64,000 bases of DNA from an uncultured delta proteobacterium (GTDB taxonomy: Bacteria; Desulfobacterota; RBG-13-43-22): assembly GCA_963711835.1 (NCBI GenBank), contig CAVQFQ010000015.1:32001-96000 (forward strand). Direction: 5' to 3'. The translations under genes were made by a program, and so were the position numbers. Under the pieces are notes generated by a model. It saw nothing but the letters and a program-made list of their open reading frames with translations, had not been told where the DNA came from and ran no database searches. Of the stretch, positions 1,468-37,077 are shown piece after piece; the first letter of the stretch is position 1, and each line of letters starts with the position of its first letter.

Positions 1468-2169
1468 ATGTTGAACCTAAAAGACGTCAATTGTTTCTAT
1501 GGCAAGAGCCACGTCCTGCACAATACCAACCTGGAGGTCCGGGAGACAGAGTTGGCCGGGCTGGTAGGGAGAAACGGGGTGGGTAAGAGTACCACCTTAA
1601 AGTCAATCATGGGAATCGTTCCACCTAAAAGCGGAACGATCACCCTGAACGGAACTACCCTGACCAGTTTGCCGGCTTATCAAATACCCCGCCAGGGCAT
1701 TGCCTATGTTCCCCAGGGCCGGCATCTGTTCCCCAAACTGACGGTCATGGAAAATTTAAAGATTCCGATTGTTCAAGGACCCCTGGATCAGGACAAGCTG
1801 GAGGAAGTCTTTGACTATTTTCCCCGTTTAAAGGAACGGGTCAAACAGAAGGCTGGTACCCTCTCCGGCGGGGAACAGCAGATGCTGGCTGTGGGACGGG
1901 CCCTGATCACCAAGCCCAAGCTGATTCTGCTCGACGAACCTACCGAGGGCTTGATGCCCCTGCTGGTCCAGTTAATTAGCCGGACCATCCAGGCCATTAA
2001 TCAAAAAGGCATGGCCATCCTGCTGGTGGAACAAAACCTGAAGATCCTCAAAGATGTCTGTCACCGGATTTATATCATGGAAAAAGGGTCCGTTGTTTAT
2101 GAGGGGACCCCGGCCCAACTGGAAGCCGCTCCCGAGATCCAGGAACGTTACCTGAGTGTTAAGGTTTAG
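1468..2169 (+). CDS. livF: Branched-chain amino acid ABC ATPase (LivF-like)
   Basis: GRNGVGKST, LSGGEQQML, LLDEPTEGL, VEQN. Confidence 0.92.
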   Translation: MLNLKDVNCFYGKSHVLHNTNLEVRETELAGLVGRNGVGKSTTLKSIMGIVPPKSGTITLNGTTLTSLPAYQIPRQGIAYVPQGRHLFPKLTVMENLKIPIVQGPLDQDKLEEVFDYFPRLKERVKQKAGTLSGGEQQMLAVGRALITKPKLILLDEPTEGLMPLLVQLISRTIQAINQKGMAILLVEQNLKILKDVCHRIYIMEKGSVVYEGTPAQLEAAPEIQERYLSVKV

Positions 2170-25137: not shown

Positions 25138-26214
25138 ATGTCGGAATTATTTGAGCGATTGAGACAACGGCTGGACGACCTGGGACCGGGTTTTCCCGTT
25201 TCAGAAAGCCGGGTGGAGATGAAAATTCTCAAGAAACTGTTTACCGAAGAGGAGGCTGAATTGTTTCTTAACCTCCCCCCTCTGCTGGAAGACCCGAACG
25301 ATACGGCCCGAAGGCTGGGCCGGGACCCTGTTCAGACCGCCGATCTCATGGAAAAGATGGCTAAAAAAGGCCTGCTATTCCGCACCAGGAAAGGCGAGCT
25401 GGTCCGTTATGCCGCCATTCCCTATGTGGTGGGTATCTTTGAGTTCCAGGTCAACAGAATGGATAAGGAGTTCGCCCGGGATATGGAGGAATACATGCAG
25501 GAGTCCTTCGATCGAACCATCGAGTCCTATAAGACGCCGATTCTTCGAACCATCCCGATCCAGAAGGATTTGGTCGCCGAGTGGCCGGTCGCCCCTTACG
25601 AGGATGTATTGGCCATCATCGACCAGCAGGAAACCATCGCCCTCTGCCCCTGCATCTGCCGGACCCTGTCCACTTTGAATGACCGGAAGTGCGACAAACC
25701 CCTGGAAGTCTGCTTTTCCTTTGGGTCCCACGCCCACTACTATGTCGAAAACCATATGGGCCGCTACATCACCAGGGAGGAAGCCAGGGAGGTCGTCAGG
25801 CAAAACGAAAAGGCCGGGCTGGTCATGCAGCCCTTCAATTCCCAGAAGGTGGGTGGGATGTGCAGTTGCTGCGGGGACTGCTGCGGTATGCTCCGGTCTT
25901 TGAAGAAACAGCCCAGACCGGCGGAGTTTGTCCAGAGTAATTATTTTGCCGCTGTAAATAGTGAGGAATGCATCGGCTGCCAGACCTGCCTGGACCGCTG
26001 CCAGATGGACGCCATCGAAATGGTCGATGACCAGGCCTCCATTTTGCTTGAGCGTTGTATCGGCTGCGGGCTGTGCGTCACCACCTGCCCCCAGGAGGCC
26101 ATGAAGCTGATTAAAAAACCGGAAGACCGGCTCTACCAGCCCCCCCAATCCGGCGCCGAGACCTATATGCGCATCGCTATGGAACGGGGCAAAAACCTGA
26201 TGCCCAGCATATAA
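25138..26214 (+). CDS. 4Fe-4S dicluster protein with N-terminal HTH-like region
   Basis: CPCICR, CSCCGDCC, CIGCQTCLDRC, CIGCGLCVTTCP. Confidence 0.88.
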   Translation: MSELFERLRQRLDDLGPGFPVSESRVEMKILKKLFTEEEAELFLNLPPLLEDPNDTARRLGRDPVQTADLMEKMAKKGLLFRTRKGELVRYAAIPYVVGIFEFQVNRMDKEFARDMEEYMQESFDRTIESYKTPILRTIPIQKDLVAEWPVAPYEDVLAIIDQQETIALCPCICRTLSTLNDRKCDKPLEVCFSFGSHAHYYVENHMGRYITREEAREVVRQNEKAGLVMQPFNSQKVGGMCSCCGDCCGMLRSLKKQPRPAEFVQSNYFAAVNSEECIGCQTCLDRCQMDAIEMVDDQASILLERCIGCGLCVTTCPQEAMKLIKKPEDRLYQPPQSGAETYMRIAMERGKNLMPSI

Positions 26215-26221
26215 AAAAACA

Positions 26222-26270
26222 AGGGGCACATCTTCATGATCGCCATTGAAGATGTGCCCCTCCTCTTTTA
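26222..26270. terminator. Rho-independent terminator-like hairpin
   Basis: AGGGGCACATCTTCA...TGAAGATGTGCCCCT flanked by A and T runs; duplicated at about 28974-29013. Confidence 0.65.
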
Positions 26271-26351
26271 AAAATCCACAACCAACGTCAAGAAAATAAA
26301 ACCCACTTATCACTTACAGGTTAAAGGTTAGGGTAATGAAAGGAGGCAGTC

Positions 26352-27536
26352 ATGAGACGGTTTTATCTAACGGTAATATTGGCTTTGACTGGTGCCTTAC
26401 TTTTAATCCAGCCAACCAGCGCCACCGGGGCGACGCGCTTTGCCGCACCGGACGGCAGCGGCTCGGCCTGCAGCCAGTCGGCCCCCTGTTCTTTGGAAAC
26501 CGCCCTTAGCCAATCCGTGGATGGGGACACGGTTTATGCCCGCTGGGGCGTTTATACCAGCGCGACAGTCATAGGCTTTGATCATAACATCACCCTCATC
26601 GGGCGTTGGGACGGCGGGACAGGACCGGCAGTGGGGCGACTGCTTCAGGCTGATGCGACCATCCTCGATGGGGAGAATCAGCGTCGGGTCGTTTATATCA
26701 TAGGCAATGTCGCCCCGACGCTGGACGGAATTACGATCCAGGGCGGCCGGGCGAGCGAGGGCGCCGGGGTAGCCGTATACGCCGGTGCATCGGCGACACT
26801 TAATGATGTCATCGTCCGCAACAACGTCGCAACTGGTGGTGGTGGTGGTGGTGTACAGGTGGAAAATTCCACTCTGCTGATCCAGCACAGTCAGATCATC
26901 AATAACAGTACACCGTTCGGGGGGGGCGGGTTGGTCGCCGCCTTCGACAGTCAAGTCACCCTACATAATAACCTGATTGCGAATAATTCGGCGGGTGAAC
27001 GAGGCGCCGGGCTTTGGGTGCGCGATGCCACGGCTACGCTGACCAATAATACCATTGTTGGTGGACAGGGCGTGGGTGCCGACGGGATCGCTGCCTCGGA
27101 ATTGTATGGCATCACGACGCTGACGCTCACCAATAATATCATAACCGGACAAACCTACGGAGTGCGATTCGGCAACCCATTGGCGGGGGTGGCCACCATT
27201 TCCAACAATGATGTCTGGGGTAACACAACCGCAAACTACAGCGGCCTGGCCGATCCAACCGGAATGAACGGCAACATCTCGGCAGATCCGCTCTTCGTGA
27301 ACGGACCCTCCCGTTGGGCCGGAGGTTGGGATTTTGCGGGTTATTACCTGAGCCAGATCGCGGCCGGTCAACCGGTAACCAGCCCGGCAATGGATTCCGG
27401 AAGCGGCTCGGCCTCCCAGATGAACCTCGCCGCCCGCACCACGCGCAGTGACAGCCAGGTGGACAGCGGGCTGGTGGACATGGGCTTTCACTACCCTCTC
27501 TTTTACCCGGTCTTTTTACCCATCTGCATCAAATAG
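26352..27536 (+). CDS. Secreted right-handed beta-helix (pectin-lyase-fold) protein
   Basis: Signal peptide; NN-rich repeats (LHNNLIANN, LTNNTIV, NNDVWGN, GNISADPLFV); C-terminal VFLPICIK. Confidence 0.85.
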   Translation: MRRFYLTVILALTGALLLIQPTSATGATRFAAPDGSGSACSQSAPCSLETALSQSVDGDTVYARWGVYTSATVIGFDHNITLIGRWDGGTGPAVGRLLQADATILDGENQRRVVYIIGNVAPTLDGITIQGGRASEGAGVAVYAGASATLNDVIVRNNVATGGGGGGVQVENSTLLIQHSQIINNSTPFGGGGLVAAFDSQVTLHNNLIANNSAGERGAGLWVRDATATLTNNTIVGGQGVGADGIAASELYGITTLTLTNNIITGQTYGVRFGNPLAGVATISNNDVWGNTTANYSGLADPTGMNGNISADPLFVNGPSRWAGGWDFAGYYLSQIAAGQPVTSPAMDSGSGSASQMNLAARTTRSDSQVDSGLVDMGFHYPLFYPVFLPICIK

Positions 27537-27707
27537 GGATCAAGCTTATGGCGGCCGGCAAGACGGGAAACACCGGGCAAACTGCTTCATAAGACGCGAT
27601 GATCCCTTCAGACGAATTTTTCGCTGCAGCAGGGCTGAAAATAGATTTTTCTCCTTGGTTAAAAATTCCAGCCAGGTTCGACTGCCGTTTCCAATCCGGT
27701 TTTCGAA

Positions 27708-28145
27708 TTATGGCTCCCAAACCTCCGCAGGGACCAGGCCCATTCCCTGGTATTCAATCCGGTAAGGTGTGATCTTGCAGACCACATAATTGGGGTCATC
27801 CGGTCCGGAGAAGATATTTTTCAGGTGGTCAAACCAGACGGCCTTTTTGGATGTTTCATCGGTCAGGATTTCAGCCCGACCTTGGATCTGCAAATAGGAT
27901 TCAGCCGTCTCCATAGTGGTGACGCCGGTAACCAGGTGGACCTCAGGATTTTTACGGAGTTGCCCTACTTTGCGAGAGCCCATGAAGGTGGCCAGCCAGA
28001 GGGTGAGATTTTCGTCGGCAAAAGGGGTTACAAAACGCACCCAGGGCTTGCCTTCTTCGGTCAGGGTGGCCAAGGCGCAAAGCGTCGGTCCCTTAAACTT
28101 GGCCAAGATTTTTTTCTTCAGTTCCTGTTTTGATGAACTTGCCAT
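27708..28145 (-). CDS. Pyridoxamine 5'-phosphate oxidase-like FMN-binding protein
   Basis: LATLTEEGKPWVR, SRKVGQLRKNPEV, FSGPDDPNY. Confidence 0.85.
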   Translation of the reverse strand: MASSSKQELKKKILAKFKGPTLCALATLTEEGKPWVRFVTPFADENLTLWLATFMGSRKVGQLRKNPEVHLVTGVTTMETAESYLQIQGRAEILTDETSKKAVWFDHLKNIFSGPDDPNYVVCKITPYRIEYQGMGLVPAEVWEP

Positions 28146-28211
28146 TTTTTCCTCCTTTTTCCTTTTTCATGATGAAATTGATTTTAACCCTACCCTTCGA
28201 CCCAACTCTTC

Positions 28212-28793
28212 TTAAGGCCTTAAAACATGATTAAAAATGAACCGCTTATGGTTCTCAAGCGGTTCCGGTCCTTTAACTGCCTTCATGTGGATCAACGCCC
28301 CGTGCCAACTGCTAACCAGGAAATAGGCAGCCTCCTTAACATCAAGGCTTTTGGAAATCTCGCCCGCCTTTTGGGCCTCGGCCAACACTCCTGAATAGAG
28401 ATTAACCATGATCTCCATAGCAGATTTGAGCTTTTCCCGAAAAGCCGGGCTCAAGTCCCCCATCTCCTGAGCCAGATTGCCGATGGGACAGCCATAGGCA
28501 TAATCTTTTGATTTAAAAAACTCTACGAACCATACGAGAATACTATTGATTTTCTCCAAAGGAGTTAAGGCAGAATCTTCCACGACCTGCTTTACCATGG
28601 AGGTAAAAAAATTAGCAAAGTAGTCGATGACTTGAAGCCCAAAATCCTCTTTTCCACTGAAATAATTATAGAATGATCCCTTTGGTACCCCTGCGGCTTC
28701 AAGTATTTCTTGAAGTCCCGTATGATGAAATCCCTTCAGATGGATGATCTCAGCACCCGCTCCAAGAATTCTGTTCTTGATATTTTCTTTCAT
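28212..28793 (-). CDS. TetR-family regulator (NemR-like)
   Basis: GVPKGSFYNYFSGKE HTH; GCPIGNLAQE C-domain. Confidence 0.9.
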   Translation of the reverse strand: MKENIKNRILGAGAEIIHLKGFHHTGLQEILEAAGVPKGSFYNYFSGKEDFGLQVIDYFANFFTSMVKQVVEDSALTPLEKINSILVWFVEFFKSKDYAYGCPIGNLAQEMGDLSPAFREKLKSAMEIMVNLYSGVLAEAQKAGEISKSLDVKEAAYFLVSSWHGALIHMKAVKGPEPLENHKRFIFNHVLRP

Positions 28794-28831
28794 CAATGGC
28801 TCTCAATAATCAATTTCTAAATAGGTTAACC

Positions 28832-28863
28832 AAATAAATAGACCGGTCGTCTTGAAATGTCAA
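28832..28863 (-). promoter_or_regulatory. Promoter with putative TetR operator in the spacer
   Basis: TTGACA-tttcAAGACGACCGGTCTA-TTTA; the operator resembles NemR-type TAGACC boxes. Confidence 0.55.
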
Positions 28864-28883
28864 GCAAACTTTCACTTTTTCCA

Positions 28884-29014
28884 CTCTACCAGCCCCCCCA
28901 ATCGGGCGCCGAGACCTATAGGCGCATCGCCCTGGAACGGGGCAAAAGCCTGATGCCCAACCTATAAAAAACAAGGGGCACATCTCCTTGATCATCCTTG
29001 AAGATGTGCCCCTC
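28884..29014 (+). repeat. Direct repeat of the 3' end and terminator of the 4Fe-4S gene (26131-26262)
   Basis: About 13 differences over ~132 bp by manual alignment. Confidence 0.92.
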
Positions 29015-29224
29015 ATCCTCTAACATTTCTCTGCTATTTATGATCCCACCTGCTAAAACTCAGAGGCCTGTTTTCCCTCGGCTACCCTTTCCGATTTTAA
29101 TACTGAATAAGATGGCCAACGTCCGGTCCTATAAATTTCCCCCACTTTCCATGAGTCAAGAGCCGACTTGACCCCTTTCCACAATACCTGGTAAAGTTAT
29201 TTTTTTCAGCAACGTCCCCTTCGA

Positions 29225-29362
29225 TTACGGGCTCAACAGGTCTTGCACAGCCGAGAAACCTCCTTTCATCCATGTGCCCACGATGCCAACGAGAATTAAA
29301 ACCGCCGCAGCCGCCAACCAGATGTAGGCAAACCCTTTCAAGAGAACGATCCACACTTTCAT
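29225..29362 (-). CDS. Small membrane peptide (45 aa), probably truncated integron cassette 4
   Basis: AAGGAG RBS just after the attC; MKVWIVLLKGFAYIWLAAAAVLILVGIVGTWMKGGFSAVQDLLSP; no attC of its own. Confidence 0.6.
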   Translation of the reverse strand: MKVWIVLLKGFAYIWLAAAAVLILVGIVGTWMKGGFSAVQDLLSP

Positions 29363-29377
29363 GCGCTACTCCTTGAG

Positions 29378-29437
29378 GCCCAACGCTGAACTCAGCCGGC
29401 ACAGTTTTTTGCGCTCGGCTGCAGTGAGATGTTAAAG
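29378..29437 (-). mobile_element. Integron attC site (60 bp)
   Basis: Minus strand CTTTAAC-atctcaCTGCAGCCG...CGGCTGAG-ttcagc-GTTGGGC; R'' overlaps the hicB stop. Confidence 0.88.
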
Positions 29438-29770
29438 ACCGATTTCCTTTTTGATCGCATCCACACATAATTTATTGAGGCTTTGCCCTTGCTTGATTGC
29501 GGTGATTGCAATCTGTTCATGCAGTTCTCTTCCCAATCTTAAATTGAATTTTCCGGAATATCCTCTTTTAGCCGTAGCTCGCGGAAGCGGGTCTCCGTCC
29601 TTTTCATATATCTTTATCCATTCCTCAATAACATGGCAAAGTTCTTCATAAACTTTGACTTCATTGTCTCCATGAACGCCGCCCAGCATTAAACCCGGGG
29701 CTCGACCGACATAGCAGCGATCCTTTTCAGACCACTCAACAATTTTTAAATACCGATCACTTTTTTTCAT
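29432..29770 (-). CDS. hicB: HicB antitoxin (cassette 3)
   Basis: VEWSEKDRCYVG, YSGKFNLRL RHH, SLNKL. Confidence 0.9.
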   Translation of the reverse strand: MKKSDRYLKIVEWSEKDRCYVGRAPGLMLGGVHGDNEVKVYEELCHVIEEWIKIYEKDGDPLPRATAKRGYSGKFNLRLGRELHEQIAITAIKQGQSLNKLCVDAIKKEIGL

Positions 29771-29960
29771 TTTTAATCCTTTCCAATGCCTTTTTTACAT
29801 CAACCTCCTGATAAGGCTTTGCATCACTGCCTGGCTTGCCGCTGATCGTGATATTCACGCCTTTGGGATGCTTATAATTTCTATGACTTCCCATTCCGCC
29901 ACGGTCTATGAAACCGGCAGATTCTAATTTATTTGTATATTCTCTAATTTTTGGAGGCAT
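29757..29960 (-). CDS. hicA: HicA toxin (cassette 3)
   Basis: GSHRNYKHP motif, AKPYQ. Confidence 0.9.
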   Translation of the reverse strand: MPPKIREYTNKLESAGFIDRGGMGSHRNYKHPKGVNITISGKPGSDAKPYQEVDVKKALERIKNEKK

Positions 29961-30027
29961 AATTGAATGGTATCACATTGGTACTAGATTATCAATGATA
30001 TTTTAAATGCAAGTTGAATACTTTGGT

Positions 30028-30101
30028 CTTTAATGGTAGCCATAAGCGGCAAGCATGGAGCGCCAGCGAAATGTCTGTCCGTCTTCATAGCTTTGTTAGC
30101 C
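30028..30101 (-). mobile_element. Integron attC site (74 bp), crossover G mutated to A
   Basis: Minus strand GGCTAAC-aaagcTATGAAGACGG...CCGCTTATGGCtacc-ATTAAAG. Confidence 0.8.
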
Positions 30102-30842
30102 AAGGCGTTTTTGGTGACTCAGATTACGACGCACAACATCTCGCGTCGCAAAGATCACCATGATTGCCTGATCCCGCGATGGGATAGGGATTCTCTCCTT
30201 CGCATGCACCGCGGTGATCCGGCTTGTATTAATGATGTTAACGACGTTCATGAGCGTTGGGTCCATGTACTCTCCCGGAACGCGCTCCTTTATGGACTTG
30301 ATCAGTGTGCCAACCACCGCATTTGGATCACATTGTGTGTTGTGCCGGAGCAGGACTTCCTTCAGGCATACCTTGAGGATCTTGCCGCAGAGGCCGATAG
30401 CGGCGATGAAACAACCTTCATCGAAACAGATCCGAATTTCGTCCAGAGTCTTTAGGAAGTCATCGCGGTAGATCTCGTTTATCTGTGCCTCATTGCACTC
30501 TTGTTGCAAGGATGCGACAGCCTCCGAAACCTCTGTCTTCGGTCCACCAGTGATTTGACCAACGGCACGTCGCAGTTCAGACTCTGAAGCTGCGAGTTCT
30601 CGACCCCGGTCTGAGAGTCAATAACCGATCCACATACCTCCTTCCGCCCCAAATAGAGGTGCCGGATCGCGCACGATTCCGAGCAGGGAGAGTTGCTCGA
30701 TGTAGGTCGTCACAAGAGCGACTCCTGCGTTGCGCAAAACAGGGTTGGTACTCGGATCAACCGTGTCGTCGTATCCGGATCTCGCGCCATGTTCCACGAT
30801 CGCCTTGATCAAATCAAACTGTAATGCAACCGGCATCATCAC
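30096..30842 (-). pseudogene. HEPN/DUF4145-like gene with in-frame TGA at 30618-30620 (cassette 2)
   Basis: ORFs 30618-30842 and 30096-30509 share a frame and are separated by one stop; C-terminal R-ITAV-H (Rx4H). Confidence 0.72.
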
Positions 30843-30846
30843 CTCT

Positions 30847-30895
30847 GGCTAACGCCAAAACTCAGCCACCGAGTTTACGAGGTCGGCTGTTCGCC
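30847..30895 (-). mobile_element. Integron attC site with left-arm deletion (49 bp)
   Basis: Minus strand GGCGAAC-AGCCGACCTCG...CGGTGGCTGAG-ttttggc-GTTAGCC. Confidence 0.78.
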
Positions 30896-30904
30896 GAATA
30901 GTTC

Positions 30905-31204
30905 TTATACATGATTTTCTACTTCAACGGACAGTTTCAACCCAACACTATGAAGTACAGAGCTCAAACTTTTTAATTTTGGATTGCCTTGTGTTGAAAG
31001 AATTCGATAAAGATTCTCACGGTTGAGTTTTGTTTCCCGGGCTATTTCAGAAATGCCCTTTGCGTTCGCAACGTCTTTTAGCGCCATTAAAAACACTTCC
31101 TGAGAGCCATCTTCCAATGCGGCATTTAAATATTCCGCGGCTTCAACTGGATCAAGGAGGTCTTTTTGAAGATTATTTTCGTATTTTTCTGTTACTTTTC
31201 CCAT
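30905..31204 (-). CDS. Addiction-module antidote (HTH antitoxin), cassette 1
   Basis: AAEYLNAALE, LNRENLYRILSTQGNP. Confidence 0.9.
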   Translation of the reverse strand: MGKVTEKYENNLQKDLLDPVEAAEYLNAALEDGSQEVFLMALKDVANAKGISEIARETKLNRENLYRILSTQGNPKLKSLSSVLHSVGLKLSVEVENHV

Positions 31205-31542
31205 TTTGTCCTCCTTTGGAAATCAGCCCAATATGCCTGCGCCAACTGAATATCTTTTGACTGAGATTTTTTAGACCCTCCGCATAGTAAAATCACGATT
31301 GTCATCTCCGATTTCCCATAATAAACACGATAGCCTGGGCCATAATCGACACGCAACTCATTCACACCCTTCCCGACAGGCTTACAATCACCAAAATTTC
31401 CAAGCCTTACACGATTCAGCCGAATTCGAATACGCGCTCGCGTCGATCGATCTTTAAGTGAATTAAGCCAGTTATGGAATGGGTTGTCTCCGTCTTCGGT
31501 TAAATATTCGAGAAGTTCTACCTTGGACTCATTCATGAACAT
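31192..31542 (-). CDS. RelE/HigB-type addiction-module toxin, cassette 1
   Basis: GNFGDCKPVGKGVNELRVDYGPGYRVYY, LLCGGSK; own TTGACA promoter at about 31565-31570. Confidence 0.92.
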   Translation of the reverse strand: MFMNESKVELLEYLTEDGDNPFHNWLNSLKDRSTRARIRIRLNRVRLGNFGDCKPVGKGVNELRVDYGPGYRVYYGKSEMTIVILLCGGSKKSQSKDIQLAQAYWADFQRRTKWEK

Positions 31543-31582
31543 ATTGTGGCTTTAAAACAACAAATGTCAAGTATTTTATTCC

Positions 31583-31620
31583 GGCGAACAAGTTATTCTA
31601 AAGTTTCTTTATATCCCCTC
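31583..31620 (-). mobile_element. attI-like site at the head of the cassette array
   Basis: Minus strand ...CTTTAGAATAACTTG|TTCGCC; not palindromic, and TTCGCCG complements the R'' of cassette 1. Confidence 0.55.
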
Positions 31621-31678
31621 ACCTTAGGGTTTGGCTAGAGGGAGGCAAACAAAGTCCATTGGCTGTTCTGGAAGTAAT

Positions 31679-31812
31679 TCATTGGATTAACTCTAACTGA
31701 TTTTCTTGGGCGATAGCCCCCCTCCTTCAACCGCCGTCTTGCGACGCTCTATCCCGCGGATCATGATGTGGCGCAAAACACCAGGCGCGTCAAGGCAAGC
31801 TAATCTCGGCAT
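31679..31812 (-). pseudogene. Internally deleted IS200-like/REP-associated tyrosine transposase
   Basis: MPRLACLDAPGVLRHIMIRGIERRK (N-terminus) joined to AIAQENQLELIQ* (C-terminus-like) in another frame. Confidence 0.7.
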
Positions 31813-31879
31813 GCACTCATTCCTTCCATAAAAAACCGACTATGACAACTTACTTTCTTACCAGCGCCCCCCATTCCAT

Positions 31880-32728
31880 TTAACTATCTACATGTAAGGC
31901 TTTTTTTTTATAATATACGCCAATTGTTTTTTTAGAATTTTCCTTAGATTCCTCTAAAAAGCAATTTATATTTATTATTGATGATAAAGCCTGAAACAAA
32001 CCATCAACTAAAAGTCCTAACAGCATATACAAATTAGACCCCAAACCCATTGCATATTTGAAACCCTCTTCCTTATTAGGTATCCCATAAAACAATCCCG
32101 TGTGATACATTTCTCCATAAAGCGTGCCGTGCAGTGACTCGGATGCATCTTCGTAAATATAGTTCCATGCTGCCAGATAAATCGCCCCATTAAAAATTTT
32201 TATTTTATCTTCTATAACCTTAATTCGTTCATATAAAGATACTTCTGTCCAGTTTTTCTCCCCACCCCTTCTCCCAGTGAATTTCTTCACCTCTTCACAA
32301 GTTTCGCTAAGAGAAAAAATATTAGGAAGAGGAATATCCTTTCCAATACATTTATAAGCTTTCTGCTTGGCATACAAAGATCTTAATATTCTCTGTTTTG
32401 AATAATCAATGTAATTTTTATACTCAACCTCTTCGCATACAATAAGATAACAAAAATTTACACTTTTTTCTAAAAAGGAACGAGCGATCATATAACCTTC
32501 CGTAATAAAGCCTCCGCTAACTAAATTAAGAATTGCCTTTCCAGCTGTTACTATGCCATAAATCACTGGATCTAAATCACTTAGACGAGATGTTTTATAT
32601 TTTTCTTCCCTTTCTTTCAAAAAAACTTCGAGCATCATGATTTGAAGAAATAGATACTGCTTAAAACTTTTAAGACATTCAAAATCATCGGGGAATTGAC
32701 GCAAAATTTTCTCGACTTCGTTTTCCAT
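31880..32728 (-). CDS. AT-rich DUF5677/HEPN-like protein
   Basis: ARSFLE and YEDASESLHG motifs; markedly low GC; start could be ATG 32770. Confidence 0.65.
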   Translation of the reverse strand: MENEVEKILRQFPDDFECLKSFKQYLFLQIMMLEVFLKEREEKYKTSRLSDLDPVIYGIVTAGKAILNLVSGGFITEGYMIARSFLEKSVNFCYLIVCEEVEYKNYIDYSKQRILRSLYAKQKAYKCIGKDIPLPNIFSLSETCEEVKKFTGRRGGEKNWTEVSLYERIKVIEDKIKIFNGAIYLAAWNYIYEDASESLHGTLYGEMYHTGLFYGIPNKEEGFKYAMGLGSNLYMLLGLLVDGLFQALSSIININCFLEESKENSKKTIGVYYKKKALHVDS

Positions 32729-32823
32729 TTTTTCGCCCTCTACAAAGTTATCTACATTGACCGACTCCATAGATTTGCTATAAAATTTATCGACCGTCAA
32801 CCGAGCGTAGTTGCTGAGTAAAC

Positions 32824-33186
32824 TTATCTTTTTCTTTTAAACCCCTTCGGTTTTGGGATTGTACCGGCCATCTGGGCCTTGAAACCGGAGTCATTGCCCA
32901 TATGAAAGTATAATCGGCCCTGGAGCTCCTTATCAACAATCACGGTCCAGCCTCGGCCGCAAACCGGATCGTTCTCATCCTGGCCTGCCCAGGTAAACTC
33001 CAAACGTTCCAGCCCATTGATTTTTTCCAGACGATGATCAATCTCTCCCTGAACGGCGCCGAATTGGAAAAGGCCAAGGCCGTCTTTCTGAAAGGTAATG
33101 TGCCCCGGAACCTCCATGTCAATGAAGTCCCTGTCCCATAATTCCATTTCAGTGATATGCCATTTACCGATGTAGTTGTTGACCAT
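32824..33186 (-). CDS. Conserved hypothetical beta-rich protein
   Basis: GKWHITEMELWD, FQFGAVQG, GRGW, GRLYFHMG. Confidence 0.75.
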   Translation of the reverse strand: MVNNYIGKWHITEMELWDRDFIDMEVPGHITFQKDGLGLFQFGAVQGEIDHRLEKINGLERLEFTWAGQDENDPVCGRGWTVIVDKELQGRLYFHMGNDSGFKAQMAGTIPKPKGFKRKR

Positions 33187-33187
33187 T

Positions 33188-33436
33188 TTATTCTTCCGCC
33201 AGCCCGAAATGCTTTTTGAATAATTCTTCGGCCTTCTTGAAGCCTTTTTCGCTCATGGCCACCGACTTGGCTTTCCCCTTGGGATCGCTGATCCAGCCTT
33301 TCTGGTGCAGCCGGTCCATGGTTTCCCAAGCGAATCCCTTCCAGGCCCGTTCTCCGTCCTCGCCTTTCGATCTCCAGGTGACCAAATAAAGCAGGGCCAG
33401 AGTCATCTCATCCACTTTTTCTTCGTTGTATTTCAT
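33188..33436 (-). CDS. DUF6429-family protein
   Basis: KVDEMTLALLYL, RAWKGF, ISDPKGKAKSV. Confidence 0.8.
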   Translation of the reverse strand: MKYNEEKVDEMTLALLYLVTWRSKGEDGERAWKGFAWETMDRLHQKGWISDPKGKAKSVAMSEKGFKKAEELFKKHFGLAEE

Positions 33437-33469
33437 TTGCCATTCCTTGGGTAAAATCCAAATCGTCCC

Positions 33470-33832
33470 TTAGGCCGCCAAAGATATTTCGGCCATAATA
33501 CGACCCCAGGGAACCGATAGGCTTTGTTCGGAAGTCCGGGAGATCAACCCAACCCGTTCAAGGGTCTGGACATCCTGATGGACGTTCTTATAGTCCCGAT
33601 TCAGCGTCTTGGCTAACGCCCTGATACTCATTGGCCCTCGATCATAGAGCCTTTTTAAGAGTTCCAATCGCCGAGGGGTAAGAACCCTTAGAAGAGTCTG
33701 GAGATCCTGGAAATAAAGCCTTTGAATAGGCTCTTTTGGAATCAAGCCTTTCTCAGCGTTTTTCCAGGCCTCGATAAATTCTTGGGCGGATTCCTCTTCG
33801 CCTTTAATTTGAATTTTTATATTGGCAGTCAA
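33470..33832 (-). CDS. HTH DNA-binding protein (HVO_A0114-like, putative antitoxin)
   Basis: LTPRRLELL, SIRALAKTLNRDYKNVHQDV. Confidence 0.82.
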   Translation of the reverse strand: MTANIKIQIKGEEESAQEFIEAWKNAEKGLIPKEPIQRLYFQDLQTLLRVLTPRRLELLKRLYDRGPMSIRALAKTLNRDYKNVHQDVQTLERVGLISRTSEQSLSVPWGRIMAEISLAA

Positions 33833-34080
33833 TTCATCCTCCTCTTATTTTTAATATCCTTCAAAAAATCCGCTATCAAGGTTTCAACATTTTTAAAATG
33901 ATAAAGTTCTTCCCTGTTTCCGATGTGGCGATGATCTCCTTTTCCCTTTTCATTATCATAACGAATGGCCGGGGTCCCATCTTTCAAACCATAAAACAGG
34001 CGGTACTTGAACCCATGACTGCTTGACTTGGTCGCGGCTGGCAACTTCCAAAGAATCATTTCCCGAATAGCACCATACCC
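33829..34080 (-). pseudogene. DUF6516/TumE-like toxin, N-terminally truncated
   Basis: GAIREMILWKLP, HGFKYRLFYG, RYDNEKGKGDHRH; the 5' end runs into the HD gene. Confidence 0.7.
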
Positions 34081-34641
34081 TCCAAGATCCGCTCTGCCAT
34101 TTCTGCCTCAGCGATCTGCCTGGCGGAGTCGGTTAGAAACCATCCTTCCAGTTTGGTTCGAAGCCTTTCCAGATACTGCTCAAAAGAATAGTCGTACCTC
34201 CGCCGGTTAATTTCAACGCCCTCTCTTGTATACCTCCAAAGTTTGTCGGCATCCTTGACCAGCTTGTCATTTAGAGAGATCCCCTCTTTCCTGGAATCGT
34301 GACCTTCGATGATGACCAGGATCTCTTCTATTTTCCGCAGTTCAACCCCGGCTTCTTCCAGGATCTGCCGGGCGATCCTGACGCCTTCCACCTCGTGGAC
34401 CCGGTTCCATTCCGGCAGGGTGGCCTTTGGACCAAAAGCCTTCAACTGAAGCTCCTCCGGCACCTGTGACCAGCCGACATCATGTACCAGGATAGCCGGA
34501 ATGACTATGTCTTCATCTCCGGCCTCTAGCCTCCAACAAGCGATAGGCGAATTGCGTTGAAATTTCCGTATGAATATCATTCTCTCGTGTCCGGAGATAG
34601 GGTTCAGCCAGTTTCTTAATCATCCGGTATTGTTCCGACAT
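34056..34641 (-). pseudogene. HD-domain phosphohydrolase with one apparent frameshift (~34530)
   Basis: RENDIHT in one frame; HDVG, HE, GHD and DADKL in another. Confidence 0.75.
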
Positions 34642-34724
34642 CCTGGGAAATACCTCCATATTCAGGGTGGGGATCAGGTTTGATAAGGGCCCTTTTTCTC
34701 TCACCCGAGGCTTCTGCGGAGGGG

Positions 34725-35624
34725 TTAATACCCTTTTTTCCGGGCCAGGTGCCGCACCCGGGCCTCCAGGTTGATCAGATAGGCCGCCTCGGGCTGCTTC
34801 GGTTCCGGTTTGGGATCGTATTCCAGGGCCTTGATCCGGGAAACCACCCTCCCGATATCCCCTTTTTCTTCCTCGATCAGATTATCGACCATCGTCTTAT
34901 GAGCCCGGGTCGCTTCCAGAGAACGGGGGAAAAAATCTTTGGCCTCCGCTCCGGTAAAGACGAGCCGGTGCCCCTGGCAGAAGATATCCGCCTCCAGCCG
35001 GCCCAACCTTTGGATGGAGTTCACATAAGCCTCGAAGTCCACTAAAAATTCGGTGATGATTTCTCCCGAGTTATCCATACAGCCTCCCGCCTCGGAAGAA
35101 ATCAGGATCTTTTGCTCAGGCAGGTAATAGCTCAGGGAATCCCAGGTATGGCCCGGGGTAAAAATGACCTCCAGGCTATTCCCATCCCCCAGGTCGATCC
35201 GATCCCCGTCTGATACAACCCGGTCCACGGTAAAAGGCTTAAAGGGGGCCGCCTCAATCCCGGGATGCCAGCGCCGAAGTACTTCAGCGGCGTTCTGGTT
35301 AAGAAGCGCTATCAGGTTCAAGGCATTGGGCCGGGTCAAAATCTCTGCGGCCTTTGCTGAAGCCGCAATCTCCATCTTCGGAAAGGCTTCCTTCAAATAG
35401 GCCGCAGCCCCGCAATGGTCAAAGTGGACATGGGTAAGGAAAAGGATCTCCGGGGTCCGGCGGCCCAACAAGGCCTTTATCTCGCCGATTACCATCGGCC
35501 CCAGGGAACTGAGTCCGGCTTCAAAAAGAACCGGCCGTTTGCCGTTGAACAGATAGACAGGCATCTCAGGGACGCCCAGGACATAAAACCCGGGGACCAC
35601 CTGGCCTTTTTGGCTGAATTTCAA
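34725..35624 (-). CDS. MBL-fold metallo-hydrolase
   Basis: THVHFDHCG, TPGHT, CQGH; TTG 35624 follows AAGGAGG. Confidence 0.9.
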   Translation of the reverse strand: MKFSQKGQVVPGFYVLGVPEMPVYLFNGKRPVLFEAGLSSLGPMVIGEIKALLGRRTPEILFLTHVHFDHCGAAAYLKEAFPKMEIAASAKAAEILTRPNALNLIALLNQNAAEVLRRWHPGIEAAPFKPFTVDRVVSDGDRIDLGDGNSLEVIFTPGHTWDSLSYYLPEQKILISSEAGGCMDNSGEIITEFLVDFEAYVNSIQRLGRLEADIFCQGHRLVFTGAEAKDFFPRSLEATRAHKTMVDNLIEEEKGDIGRVVSRIKALEYDPKPEPKQPEAAYLINLEARVRHLARKKGY

Positions 35625-35787
35625 GAAACCCTCCTTTGAATATATCGGAACATCACATTTTTTCCCAAGATATCTCATTGACTTATTTTTGCAAGCCAAT
35701 TCCCCTCTTTTTAGGCTTGACCCCTTCCCTTCCCCATTTTATAGTCCTTCCATCCGGCAGTTGTTCCCGGGGGAGGAGGAATAATCC

Positions 35788-37077
35788 ATGTTGGGATCTT
35801 TAGGGCGAGATGATTACACCCGGTTTTGGCACCTGATCGTGACCCTTACGTCGGTGCTGGCTGCCGTCTATATTCCCCTGGAATTGATTTTTCAGGGCAC
35901 TGGATCCGGAGATTTTAAACGCTTTGATACCCTGGTCACTTTCATCTTTTCCGTTGATGTGCTGGTTTATCAACTGACTTGGCGCCGGCAAGGCGAGGAA
36001 ACCCACCTCCTTCATAGGGAGATCCCGAAAAGAGAGCGGGTCATCTGGCTCACAATTGATCTGCTGGCTGCTCTGCCTTTTGGGATGCTCTTGGGTACTC
36101 CTTACTTATCGGCCTTGAGAATTTTAAAACTGCTCCGGGTCGGCCAGTATCTGCACCACTGGCGCCAGAAGGTCTTAAAATATAGCGACCCCCTAAAACT
36201 GGCTTTCTTCGCTTTCTGGTTTTTCATCCTCACCCACTGGCTCACCTGCGGCTGGCTGGCCCTGGCCTCGAATTTCTATAAAGCAGATCCGGCAACCAAC
36301 TATCTCTCTGCCTTTCACTGGGTTATTGAAACCTTGACCTCGGTCGGTTTCGGGGAGACCATCCCGGCCTCCAATGCCCAGAGGATCTATTCCATTATTT
36401 TGATGCTGGCCGGGGTGGGTGTCTATGGCTATGTCATCGGGAATGTAGCCGGTATCCTGGCGAAAAGGGATCCGGCTAAAAACCAGTATTTCAGCAACCT
36501 GGACCAGTTGAACGCCTTTGTCCAGTACCGGGATATCCCCTCCAGCCTCCAAAAGCGAATCCGGGACTACTATGCCTATATCTGGAAAAAGCGTTTGGGG
36601 TTCGATGAAACGACTTTCCTCTCCGGACTGCCCCGAGGGCTCCACACCGAAGTGGCCATGCACCTCAAGGTCGAAATCCTGGAAAAAATTCCTTTGTTTA
36701 AAGGGGTGAGAAAAAGTTTTATCGGCGAAGTGGCTTTAAATTTGAAACCCGATGTCTATACCCCGGGAGAGTTTATATTCAGGGCCGGCCAGAAAGCCAA
36801 ACGCATGTATTTTGTTATCAGGGGTCGGTTGGACGTTTTAACCAAAGAAGGGGTTGTCATTAATACCCTGCAGGACGGGGATTTTTTCGGCGAGATCGCC
36901 CTCTTCAGCGATCAACCCCGAAGCGCCTCAGTCCGGGCGGTTACCTACTGCGACCTCTACATCCTCGACAAAGAGGTCTTTGAATATTTATTGGAGCGTT
37001 TTCCGGACATCGGCGCCCACATCAAAGAAGTCGGCCTCGAAAGATTAGGCCGGGGTGATTCTTTGAAGGCCGATTAA
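35788..37077 (+). CDS. Cyclic-nucleotide-gated cation (K+) channel
   Basis: S4-like LRILKLLR, pore TLTSVGFGE, C-linker, FFGEIAL...RSASV cNMP domain. Confidence 0.9.
   Translation: MLGSLGRDDYTRFWHLIVTLTSVLAAVYIPLELIFQGTGSGDFKRFDTLVTFIFSVDVLVYQLTWRRQGEETHLLHREIPKRERVIWLTIDLLAALPFGMLLGTPYLSALRILKLLRVGQYLHHWRQKVLKYSDPLKLAFFAFWFFILTHWLTCGWLALASNFYKADPATNYLSAFHWVIETLTSVGFGETIPASNAQRIYSIILMLAGVGVYGYVIGNVAGILAKRDPAKNQYFSNLDQLNAFVQYRDIPSSLQKRIRDYYAYIWKKRLGFDETTFLSGLPRGLHTEVAMHLKVEILEKIPLFKGVRKSFIGEVALNLKPDVYTPGEFIFRAGQKAKRMYFVIRGRLDVLTKEGVVINTLQDGDFFGEIALFSDQPRSASVRAVTYCDLYILDKEVFEYLLERFPDIGAHIKEVGLERLGRGDSLKAD

Follow-up and report, generated by a model that had tools for sequence, protein, structure and literature searches.

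A decaying integron remnant with four cassettes, a predicted attI site and no neighbouring integrase gene in an uncultured delta proteobacterium

A cassette array that lacks an integrase gene raises the question of how its cassettes were assembled and whether they can still move. Such an array spans positions 31673 to 29221, on the minus strand, of a 64,000-nt stretch of DNA from an uncultured delta proteobacterium (Desulfobacterota, RBG-13-43-22; assembly GCA_963711835.1, contig CAVQFQ010000015.1, positions 32,001 to 96,000), hereafter referred to as the window. It consists of a predicted integron attachment site (attI) followed by four cassettes. An earlier interpretation made from the letters alone (the sequence-only reading) had described an attI-like site, three attC sites and four cassettes, and these coordinates and pairings were all found in the sequence. 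With a probability of about 70%, the array is headed by a genuine attI, was likely built by an integron integrase (IntI) whose gene was later lost, and is now predicted to be mostly frozen. The locus is a real but decaying remnant of a known kind, the CALIN type (clustered attC sites without an integron integrase).

All cassettes have the same orientation and are bounded by G|TT. Homologous cassettes in other genomes start and stop at identical bases, which speaks against a chance resemblance. The start of each complete cassette is complementary to its own R'' box, as the sequence-only reading had stated: over 8 nt in cassette 1, the G included, and over 7 and 9 nt past the crossover base in cassettes 2 and 3, respectively. 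The proposed start of a fourth cassette at 29384 was also found, the cassette itself being truncated and without attC. No neighbouring intI accompanies the array, since the 172-kb contig of the window (C15) gave no IntI match. Neither intI nor a cassette promoter (Pc) is present in the window, which separates the locus from a complete integron. Unless a strand is given, the features described below lie on the minus strand.

The attI remnant (31587..31673) extends over ~84 nt on the upstream side of its crossover, which has its G at 31589, and shows a family-wide motif that ends in G|TT. When 131 nt around 31589 were used as query, matches were obtained in 14 of the 20 family genomes; the common core stops at G|TT and the sequences diverge beyond it. 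In one related locus (L032), a divergent intI open reading frame (ORF; TIGR02249, 358 bits) starts at a distance of 132 bp from the site. An attI sequence model, for which 27 sites including that of the window were used in training, gave a match in the canonical divergent position before four of the family's eight over-cut-off intI genes (G003:C166, G013:C174, G015:C47 and G016:C14; three of them outside the training alignment), and a partial intI in G021 is also adjoined by attI. The same model had no match in 34 of 40 genomes from other families.

A subset of the attI sites was retrieved, which gave 80 distinct ones for analysis. Past the G|TT triplet, the next 10 nt were distinct in 79 of these 80. 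A same-strand attC match was found within 1.6 kb of attI in 28 of 79, and in 13 of these 28 the first cassette shows a perfect 4/4 match between R'' and R'. At E ≤ 0.05, all 39 attC matches in attI loci (two of them training sites) were on the attI strand; eight weaker matches, including two opposite-strand duplicates and one opposite-strand match at E 0.39, were dropped. A conserved site that ends in G|TT, lies beside the 5' end of a divergent intI and carries varied cassettes at the crossover has the properties of an attI, and on these sequence grounds the site in the window is identified as a genuine one. This supports IntI-mediated cassette integration as the origin of the array, as had been proposed earlier. 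The opposing view, that the cassettes were inserted by chance at some GTT of the chromosome (an attG) and that the attI-like look is coincidental, is hardly credible. Insertion by IntI into attG sites does occur and may give rise to small CALINs (10.1101/2022.09.11.507474, accessible text); moreover, no L box or direct repeats are defined at the window site. However, the motif was found in 18 of the 20 family genomes and adjoins intact intI canonically.

A 32-nt exact attI pattern had no match in metagenomes, and a viral match to a 20-nt attI motif (L300) was set aside as likely due to chance. In several loci (L197, L222, L224, L225, L231, L294 and L297) attI is directly followed by a gene-less, strongly palindromic first unit, with intI sequence still upstream in several cases; this unit may be a cassette without an ORF or, alternatively, the right half native to the site.

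The three attC sites were scored with our own covariance model, whose training set of 17 sites excluded the window. The canonical attC3 (29378..29437, 60 nt) was clearly recognized (32.5 bits, E 3.6e-6 over 64 kb), and its model pairs are all standard. The result for attC2 (30028..30101, 74 nt) was marginal: 12.1 bits, with E 0.094 in a 5-kb search and no listing at E ≤ 1 over 64 kb. The weakest score, 7.1 bits, was that of attC1 (30847..30897, 51 nt). A loose heuristic attC scan produced 171 matches, mostly noise, and the covariance model was used instead. On folding of the bottom strands, the lowest-energy structure of attC3 shows a bulge in the central stem and leaves the R box open, attC2 forms a bulged stem with three non-standard pairs, and attC1 folds into two unrelated hairpins; the folding energies of attC2 and attC3 did not differ significantly from those of shuffled sequences (z-scores of -0.57 and -0.38). 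Because attC3 is the single site that scores clearly, the CALIN call by IntegronFinder that had been expected is not assured, and the tool may report a single attC site. Formal CALIN membership therefore hinges on a second attC passing IntegronFinder; the locus works like a CALIN. The sequence-only reading was right about the array and missed the damage in two of the three attC sites, the pseudogene in cassette 2 and the truncation of cassette 4.

Cassette 1 (30853..31588, 736 bp) carries a RelE/ParE-family toxin gene (31542-31192) and its antidote (31204-30905), whose products match TIGR02683 (127.6 bits) and TIGR02684 (74.3 bits), together with a predicted promoter (31570-31543; a promoter-like site of 10/12, kept in homologs). 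The antitoxin has 51 related loci, of which 30 were inspected: several have the cassette start in common and others are without clear ends. The homologs come mostly from Deltaproteobacteria or Desulfobacterales records. In three loci (L077, L083 and L090) the cassette is preceded by an attC-model match and not by attI, and a near-identical environmental contig aligns with the window from 30851 to 31590, with different sequence beyond 30851.

The left arm of attC1 is short by 10 nt (the spacer and part of L''), which are present in all five aligned homologs, and an intact homolog (L094) reaches 27.9 bits with the attC model, compared to 7.1 bits for the window site. An alternative R'' box farther upstream was rejected, as it left the L box mismatched (7.1 bits). 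Among environmental runs, X4 carries the 10 nt and the covering contigs of X1 and X2 do not; the deletion therefore likely represents natural allelic variation rather than an error of assembly. By homology, attC1 is identified as a true attC that has undergone a deletion, and it is predicted to be non-functional.

Cassette 2 (30034..30852, 819 bp) contains a single HEPN-like gene (30842-30096) interrupted by an in-frame TGA at codon 75 (30620-30618). The same reading frame continues on both sides of the stop, which makes this one broken ORF. Homologs are mostly 241-251 aa long and up to 91% identical, and an Rx4H motif is conserved in their alignment. The match to Pfam HEPN is weak and below the cut-off (E 0.0013); some homologs contain PF14355, presumably Abi_C. 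A search by sequence for a relative of solved structure found none. At the end of this cassette, the R' box of attC2 reads A|TT in place of G|TT, and the corresponding base before a homologous hicAB cassette (L169) is G. Recombination in assays with IntI1 dropped 1,000 to 10,000-fold when the first base pair was changed in just one of the partners (PMC2811028, accessible text). By analogy, poor recombination with G|TT partners is predicted for attC2.

Cassette 3 (29384..30033, 650 bp) comprises hicA (29960-29757) and hicB (29770-29432), whose products match PF07927 and PF05534 over the cut-offs, and a predicted promoter (29995-29967; a promoter-like site of 9/12 with TG). By their families, their overlapping operons and these predicted promoters, the gene pairs of cassettes 1 and 3 are classed as predicted type II toxin-antitoxin (TA) systems; the promoter scan as a whole was not above chance (13 found, 9.1 ± 2.8 expected). 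In G215, a hicAB cassette of 90% identity can be aligned from exactly the TT at 30033 up to its R'' box, beyond which a different attC follows, and in runs X1 and X4 another attC lies upstream of hicAB. Cassettes 1 and 3 thus both recur in other genomes with identical boundaries and other neighbours.

Cassette 4 (29221..29383) encodes a 45-aa hydrophobic protein (29362-29225). In a search that covered longer proteins only, its homologs were mostly 80-85 aa long and shared up to 93% identity across the 45 aa. The cassette stops at the left end of a Y1-transposase element (29177..29220), which interrupts it and is 95% identical to the end preceding a Y1_Tnp pseudogene on C21; we take these elements to be of the RAYT type. 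The cargo is therefore as called in the sequence-only reading: a TIGR02683/TIGR02684 pair, a HEPN-like gene, HicA/HicB and a small hydrophobic protein. An Rfam scan of 27000-36000 gave zero matches at E ≤ 1, and a PADLOC scan of 11 proteins gave nothing beyond HTH-level matches for one upstream protein. The matches listed contained no RNA holder, from which nothing follows for expression. By the array end, a 140-bp duplicate (~89%) consisting of a ferredoxin-like gene 3' end and a hairpin (26131-26271 and 28884-29023) brackets a block of sequence.

The claim that the window has no intI was borne out, and a search of the whole genome (a 3.9-Mb assembly of 28 contigs, 89% complete and 6.4% contaminated) gave broken pieces elsewhere only: two C-terminal pieces on C5 and, on C17, what is likely an N-terminal remnant. 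Many attI sites of the family have a Pc-like promoter, of predicted function, ~155 bp upstream; no Pc-like match was found upstream of the attI in the window. There, an internally deleted relic of a Y1-transposase element (31672..31878) has kept its left terminal repeat and lost the right one at the attI junction, and it likely took the Pc region along. Over 22 aa, the relic shares 73% identity with the N-terminal end of a Y1_Tnp protein of 327 aa encoded on C5; a fuller copy (89-93%) with both repeats is present on C13, and copies that have a right repeat occur in runs X1 and X2.

A transposase relic had been said to sit where intI would be. Its position stands; the relic is likely not what removed intI. 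Contigs of runs X1, X2 and X4 connect 31673 to 32847 via 138 other letters, with neither the relic nor the DUF5677 gene found next to it in the window, and with no space for intI. Near-identical strains are thus without the relic and still without intI, and the relic therefore likely arrived after the loss of intI.

Further Y1-transposase elements with short terminal inverted repeats were found at C5:298848, C17:164040-165821, C17:498780 and C13:35958-36400, in addition to those at both array flanks. Their settings in the genome include an intI break point, a position beside a likely intI remnant, the inside of one array and a place behind another. Upstream of attI (31880-34059) lie genes for a DUF5677 protein, a 120-aa unknown protein, a DUF6429 protein and a TumE + HVO_A0114 pair; the TumE pair has homologs with 74-78% DNA identity in G009 and G012. 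These genes were rejected as cassettes, since no credible attC match was found in 31640-34100.

Based on these data, we propose the following history. IntI would have loaded the cassettes at attI by attC × attI recombination, from cassette 4 (the oldest) to cassette 1 (the newest). The intI gene would then have been deleted, with Pc-attI left in place, as in related strains, and the DUF5677 gene and the transposase relic would later have replaced the Pc region. Cassettes 1, 2 and 3 are predicted to excise singly no longer, the block being at attC1 and attC2. Insertion of a new cassette at attI would still be open to an IntI acting in trans, which could also remove cassettes 1-3 as a single 2.2-kb block by recombination between attI and attC3. 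By analogy with known TA cassettes, the two self-promoted TA pairs would penalise the loss of cassettes 1-3 and so may help to retain the remnant.

Several observations weigh against this reading. A single attC scores clearly, and the folding z-scores are not significant. Four of the eight intI genes of the family have no neighbouring attI-model match (one of them starts at a contig edge). Of the 79 attI sites, 51 have no attC match within 1.6 kb, which is partly a limit of the 17-sequence model, and the perfect 4/4 match between R'' and R' for the first cassette at 13 of the other 28 stands without a permutation control. The effect ascribed to A|TT is extrapolated from assays with IntI1 that altered both of the paired bases. 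The environmental contigs come from four metagenome runs and are not phasable to one strain. Finally, there is no intI remnant at the window locus, so an in-place deletion of intI is not shown, and at the given completeness and contamination of the genome an intact intI may be unassembled.

The last point would favour an array that is still live and shuffled by an intact IntI missing from the assembly, which we consider quite improbable. Besides the 89% completeness, this explanation can call on the four attI-headed loci and 26 attC-model matches of the genome (E ≤ 0.1; 15 are training sites) and on related strains that carry differing cassettes around shared ones. It is opposed by the deletion in attC1, the A|TT of attC2, the nonsense codon, the truncated cassette and the loss of Pc, all of which point to decay, and by the fact that the intI pieces found are broken. 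Furthermore, three relatives listed as 100% complete (4-10% contamination) have numerous attI matches (G020 24, G010 20 and G014 20) and 15-27 attC matches each, with no IntI-like protein of >35% identity over long stretches; only general tyrosine recombinases were found in them. Ten of the G020 matches are on one 2-Mb contig.

This excess of attI over intI characterizes the family. With 75 candidates scored per genome, 134 attI-model matches were found in 18 of 20 relatives, compared to eight over-cut-off intI genes. None of the four attI sites in the genome of the window adjoins the intI pieces. An exact-motif scan of metagenomes gave at least 121 stretches, and the matches listed comprised 111 distinct sites; after 71 with <600 nt upstream and one viral match had been left out, 39 remained. 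Among these listed sites, intI filled the upstream flank in three, intI fragments of varied length were present in 11, and none was found in 25. The simplest reading of the family pattern is repeated arrival of integrons, followed by decay of intI with Pc-attI kept. In the relatives with about twenty attI sites and no IntI found, these sites are likely scattered docking points open to a visiting integrase.

The three further attI sites without intI in the genome of the window are C13:39133 (-), C6:60129 (+) and C7:52941 (+). The one on C13 stands at the head of an array. The first cassette there agrees with its own R'' box, and ATT is again found at the end of the first attC; C13 also retains a few codons resembling an intI start. 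Small attC clusters or single attC sites without an attI match of the window type were observed on C4, C5, C10, C12, C14, C17 and C24.

A different origin was also considered, namely that intI was never at the locus: Pc-attI would have moved as a unit of its own, excised by IntI through a secondary G|TT that lies ~165 bp upstream of attI and inserted again elsewhere or inside arrays, and would have collected its cassettes via an integrase in trans. In L196, an attC (32.4 bits) is joined via G|TT to a platform-internal G|TT at ~-165, which is followed by Pc, attI and a further cassette (junction region 1500-1718 (-), noted together with L197; a second attI lies 1.65 kb upstream on the contig). 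This junction fits either a mobile Pc-attI unit or an IntI deleting its own gene, and it is the sole clear one. One G020 array (L052:6540-9060, G020:C12) contains four attI sites within 2.5 kb, with duplicated flanking pieces between them. Close attI alleles occupy unrelated flanks across genomes, and in 7 of 18 chosen pairs the similarity stops between -155 and -171; selection keeping Pc also explains the cluster near -160. Break points range from -84 to -342 and have no common motif, and neither a fixed transposon-like left end for orphan attI sites nor a junction signature of general validity was found. Near the -35 box, G[AT]T is equally common in intI-bearing (15/24) and orphan (16/31) sites. 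The nearest neighbour of an attI is in the same genome in 22 of 80 cases (10.8 expected); however, the copies are diverged, and a mean identity of 0.545 within genomes, compared to 0.541 between them, gives scant sign of recent within-genome copying. In the accessible texts, class 1 integrons recombine attI-bounded cassettes (PMC12901181), while insertion of attI1 into the E. coli genome was not above background (10.1101/2022.09.11.507474). Taken together, these data make an origin without a resident intI unlikely, and the loss of intI after assembly of the array remains the preferred reading.

For the family as a whole, we put forward a tentative idea, with the odds clearly against it: that the integron has come apart, Pc-attI platforms having spread without intI by IntI-made junctions like that of L196, to give at least 20 docking sites per genome with one or two cassettes each, served by an integrase that is rare or only passing through. 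On this view, the window would be an aged node of such a system. At title and abstract level, no description of many integrase-less attI sites per genome was found; supplementary tables could hold such sites.

The locus in the window is itself an ordinary decaying CALIN, and the comparisons that follow refer to the accessible portions of the cited texts. CALINs, decay of intI and mobilization in trans are already known (PMC4889954, 2016, which proposed loss of intI and mobilization in trans for integrase-less arrays; 10.1101/2022.02.06.479319); PMC8876359 contributed nothing further. The array shares with the CALINs of PMC4889954 its shortness, its single orientation and the lack of a nearby intI; it differs in that its attI was kept and has been identified, whereas only class 1-3 attI sites were searched there, by exact match. 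It resembles the SALIN (lone attC sites without an integron integrase) and attG insertions of Loot et al. (10.1101/2022.09.11.507474), small integrase-less units scattered over the genome, but its first cassette sits in what is identified as a real attI and not in an attG.

The chromosomal integrons of Xanthomonas (10.1101/2025.06.18.660453) show the same decay of intI by deletion, with arrays that persist and extra CALINs elsewhere; their platform occupies one fixed locus (ilvD), in contrast to the window family, in which a genome can have 20 or more diverged attI sites at many loci. Delta-attI-type cassettes of class 1 and 2 integrons (PMC12901181) have attI as cassette ends within arrays, comparable to the G020 array and L196. 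In those clinical mobile integrons a short attI piece replaces attC, whereas the window family has long Pc-attI segments on environmental chromosomes, and the attI of the window heads its array. Cassettes 1 and 3 are similar to the promoter-bearing TA cassettes of chromosomal integrons, which kill on excision (PMC13108822); here two such pairs, known from sequence, occur among the four cassettes of a tiny remnant.

The less ordinary part is the family pattern, a retained and newly searchable attI at high copy number in relatives. According to PMC4889954, attI is unknown for most integrons, and the reason why CALINs are common in genomes without intI was left open there, partly because attI is not searchable in most integrons. 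The value of the present locus lies in a searchable attI for a whole family, by which arrays that keep their platform can be told from those at secondary sites, and the capture of genes in trans by integrase-less arrays can be tested.

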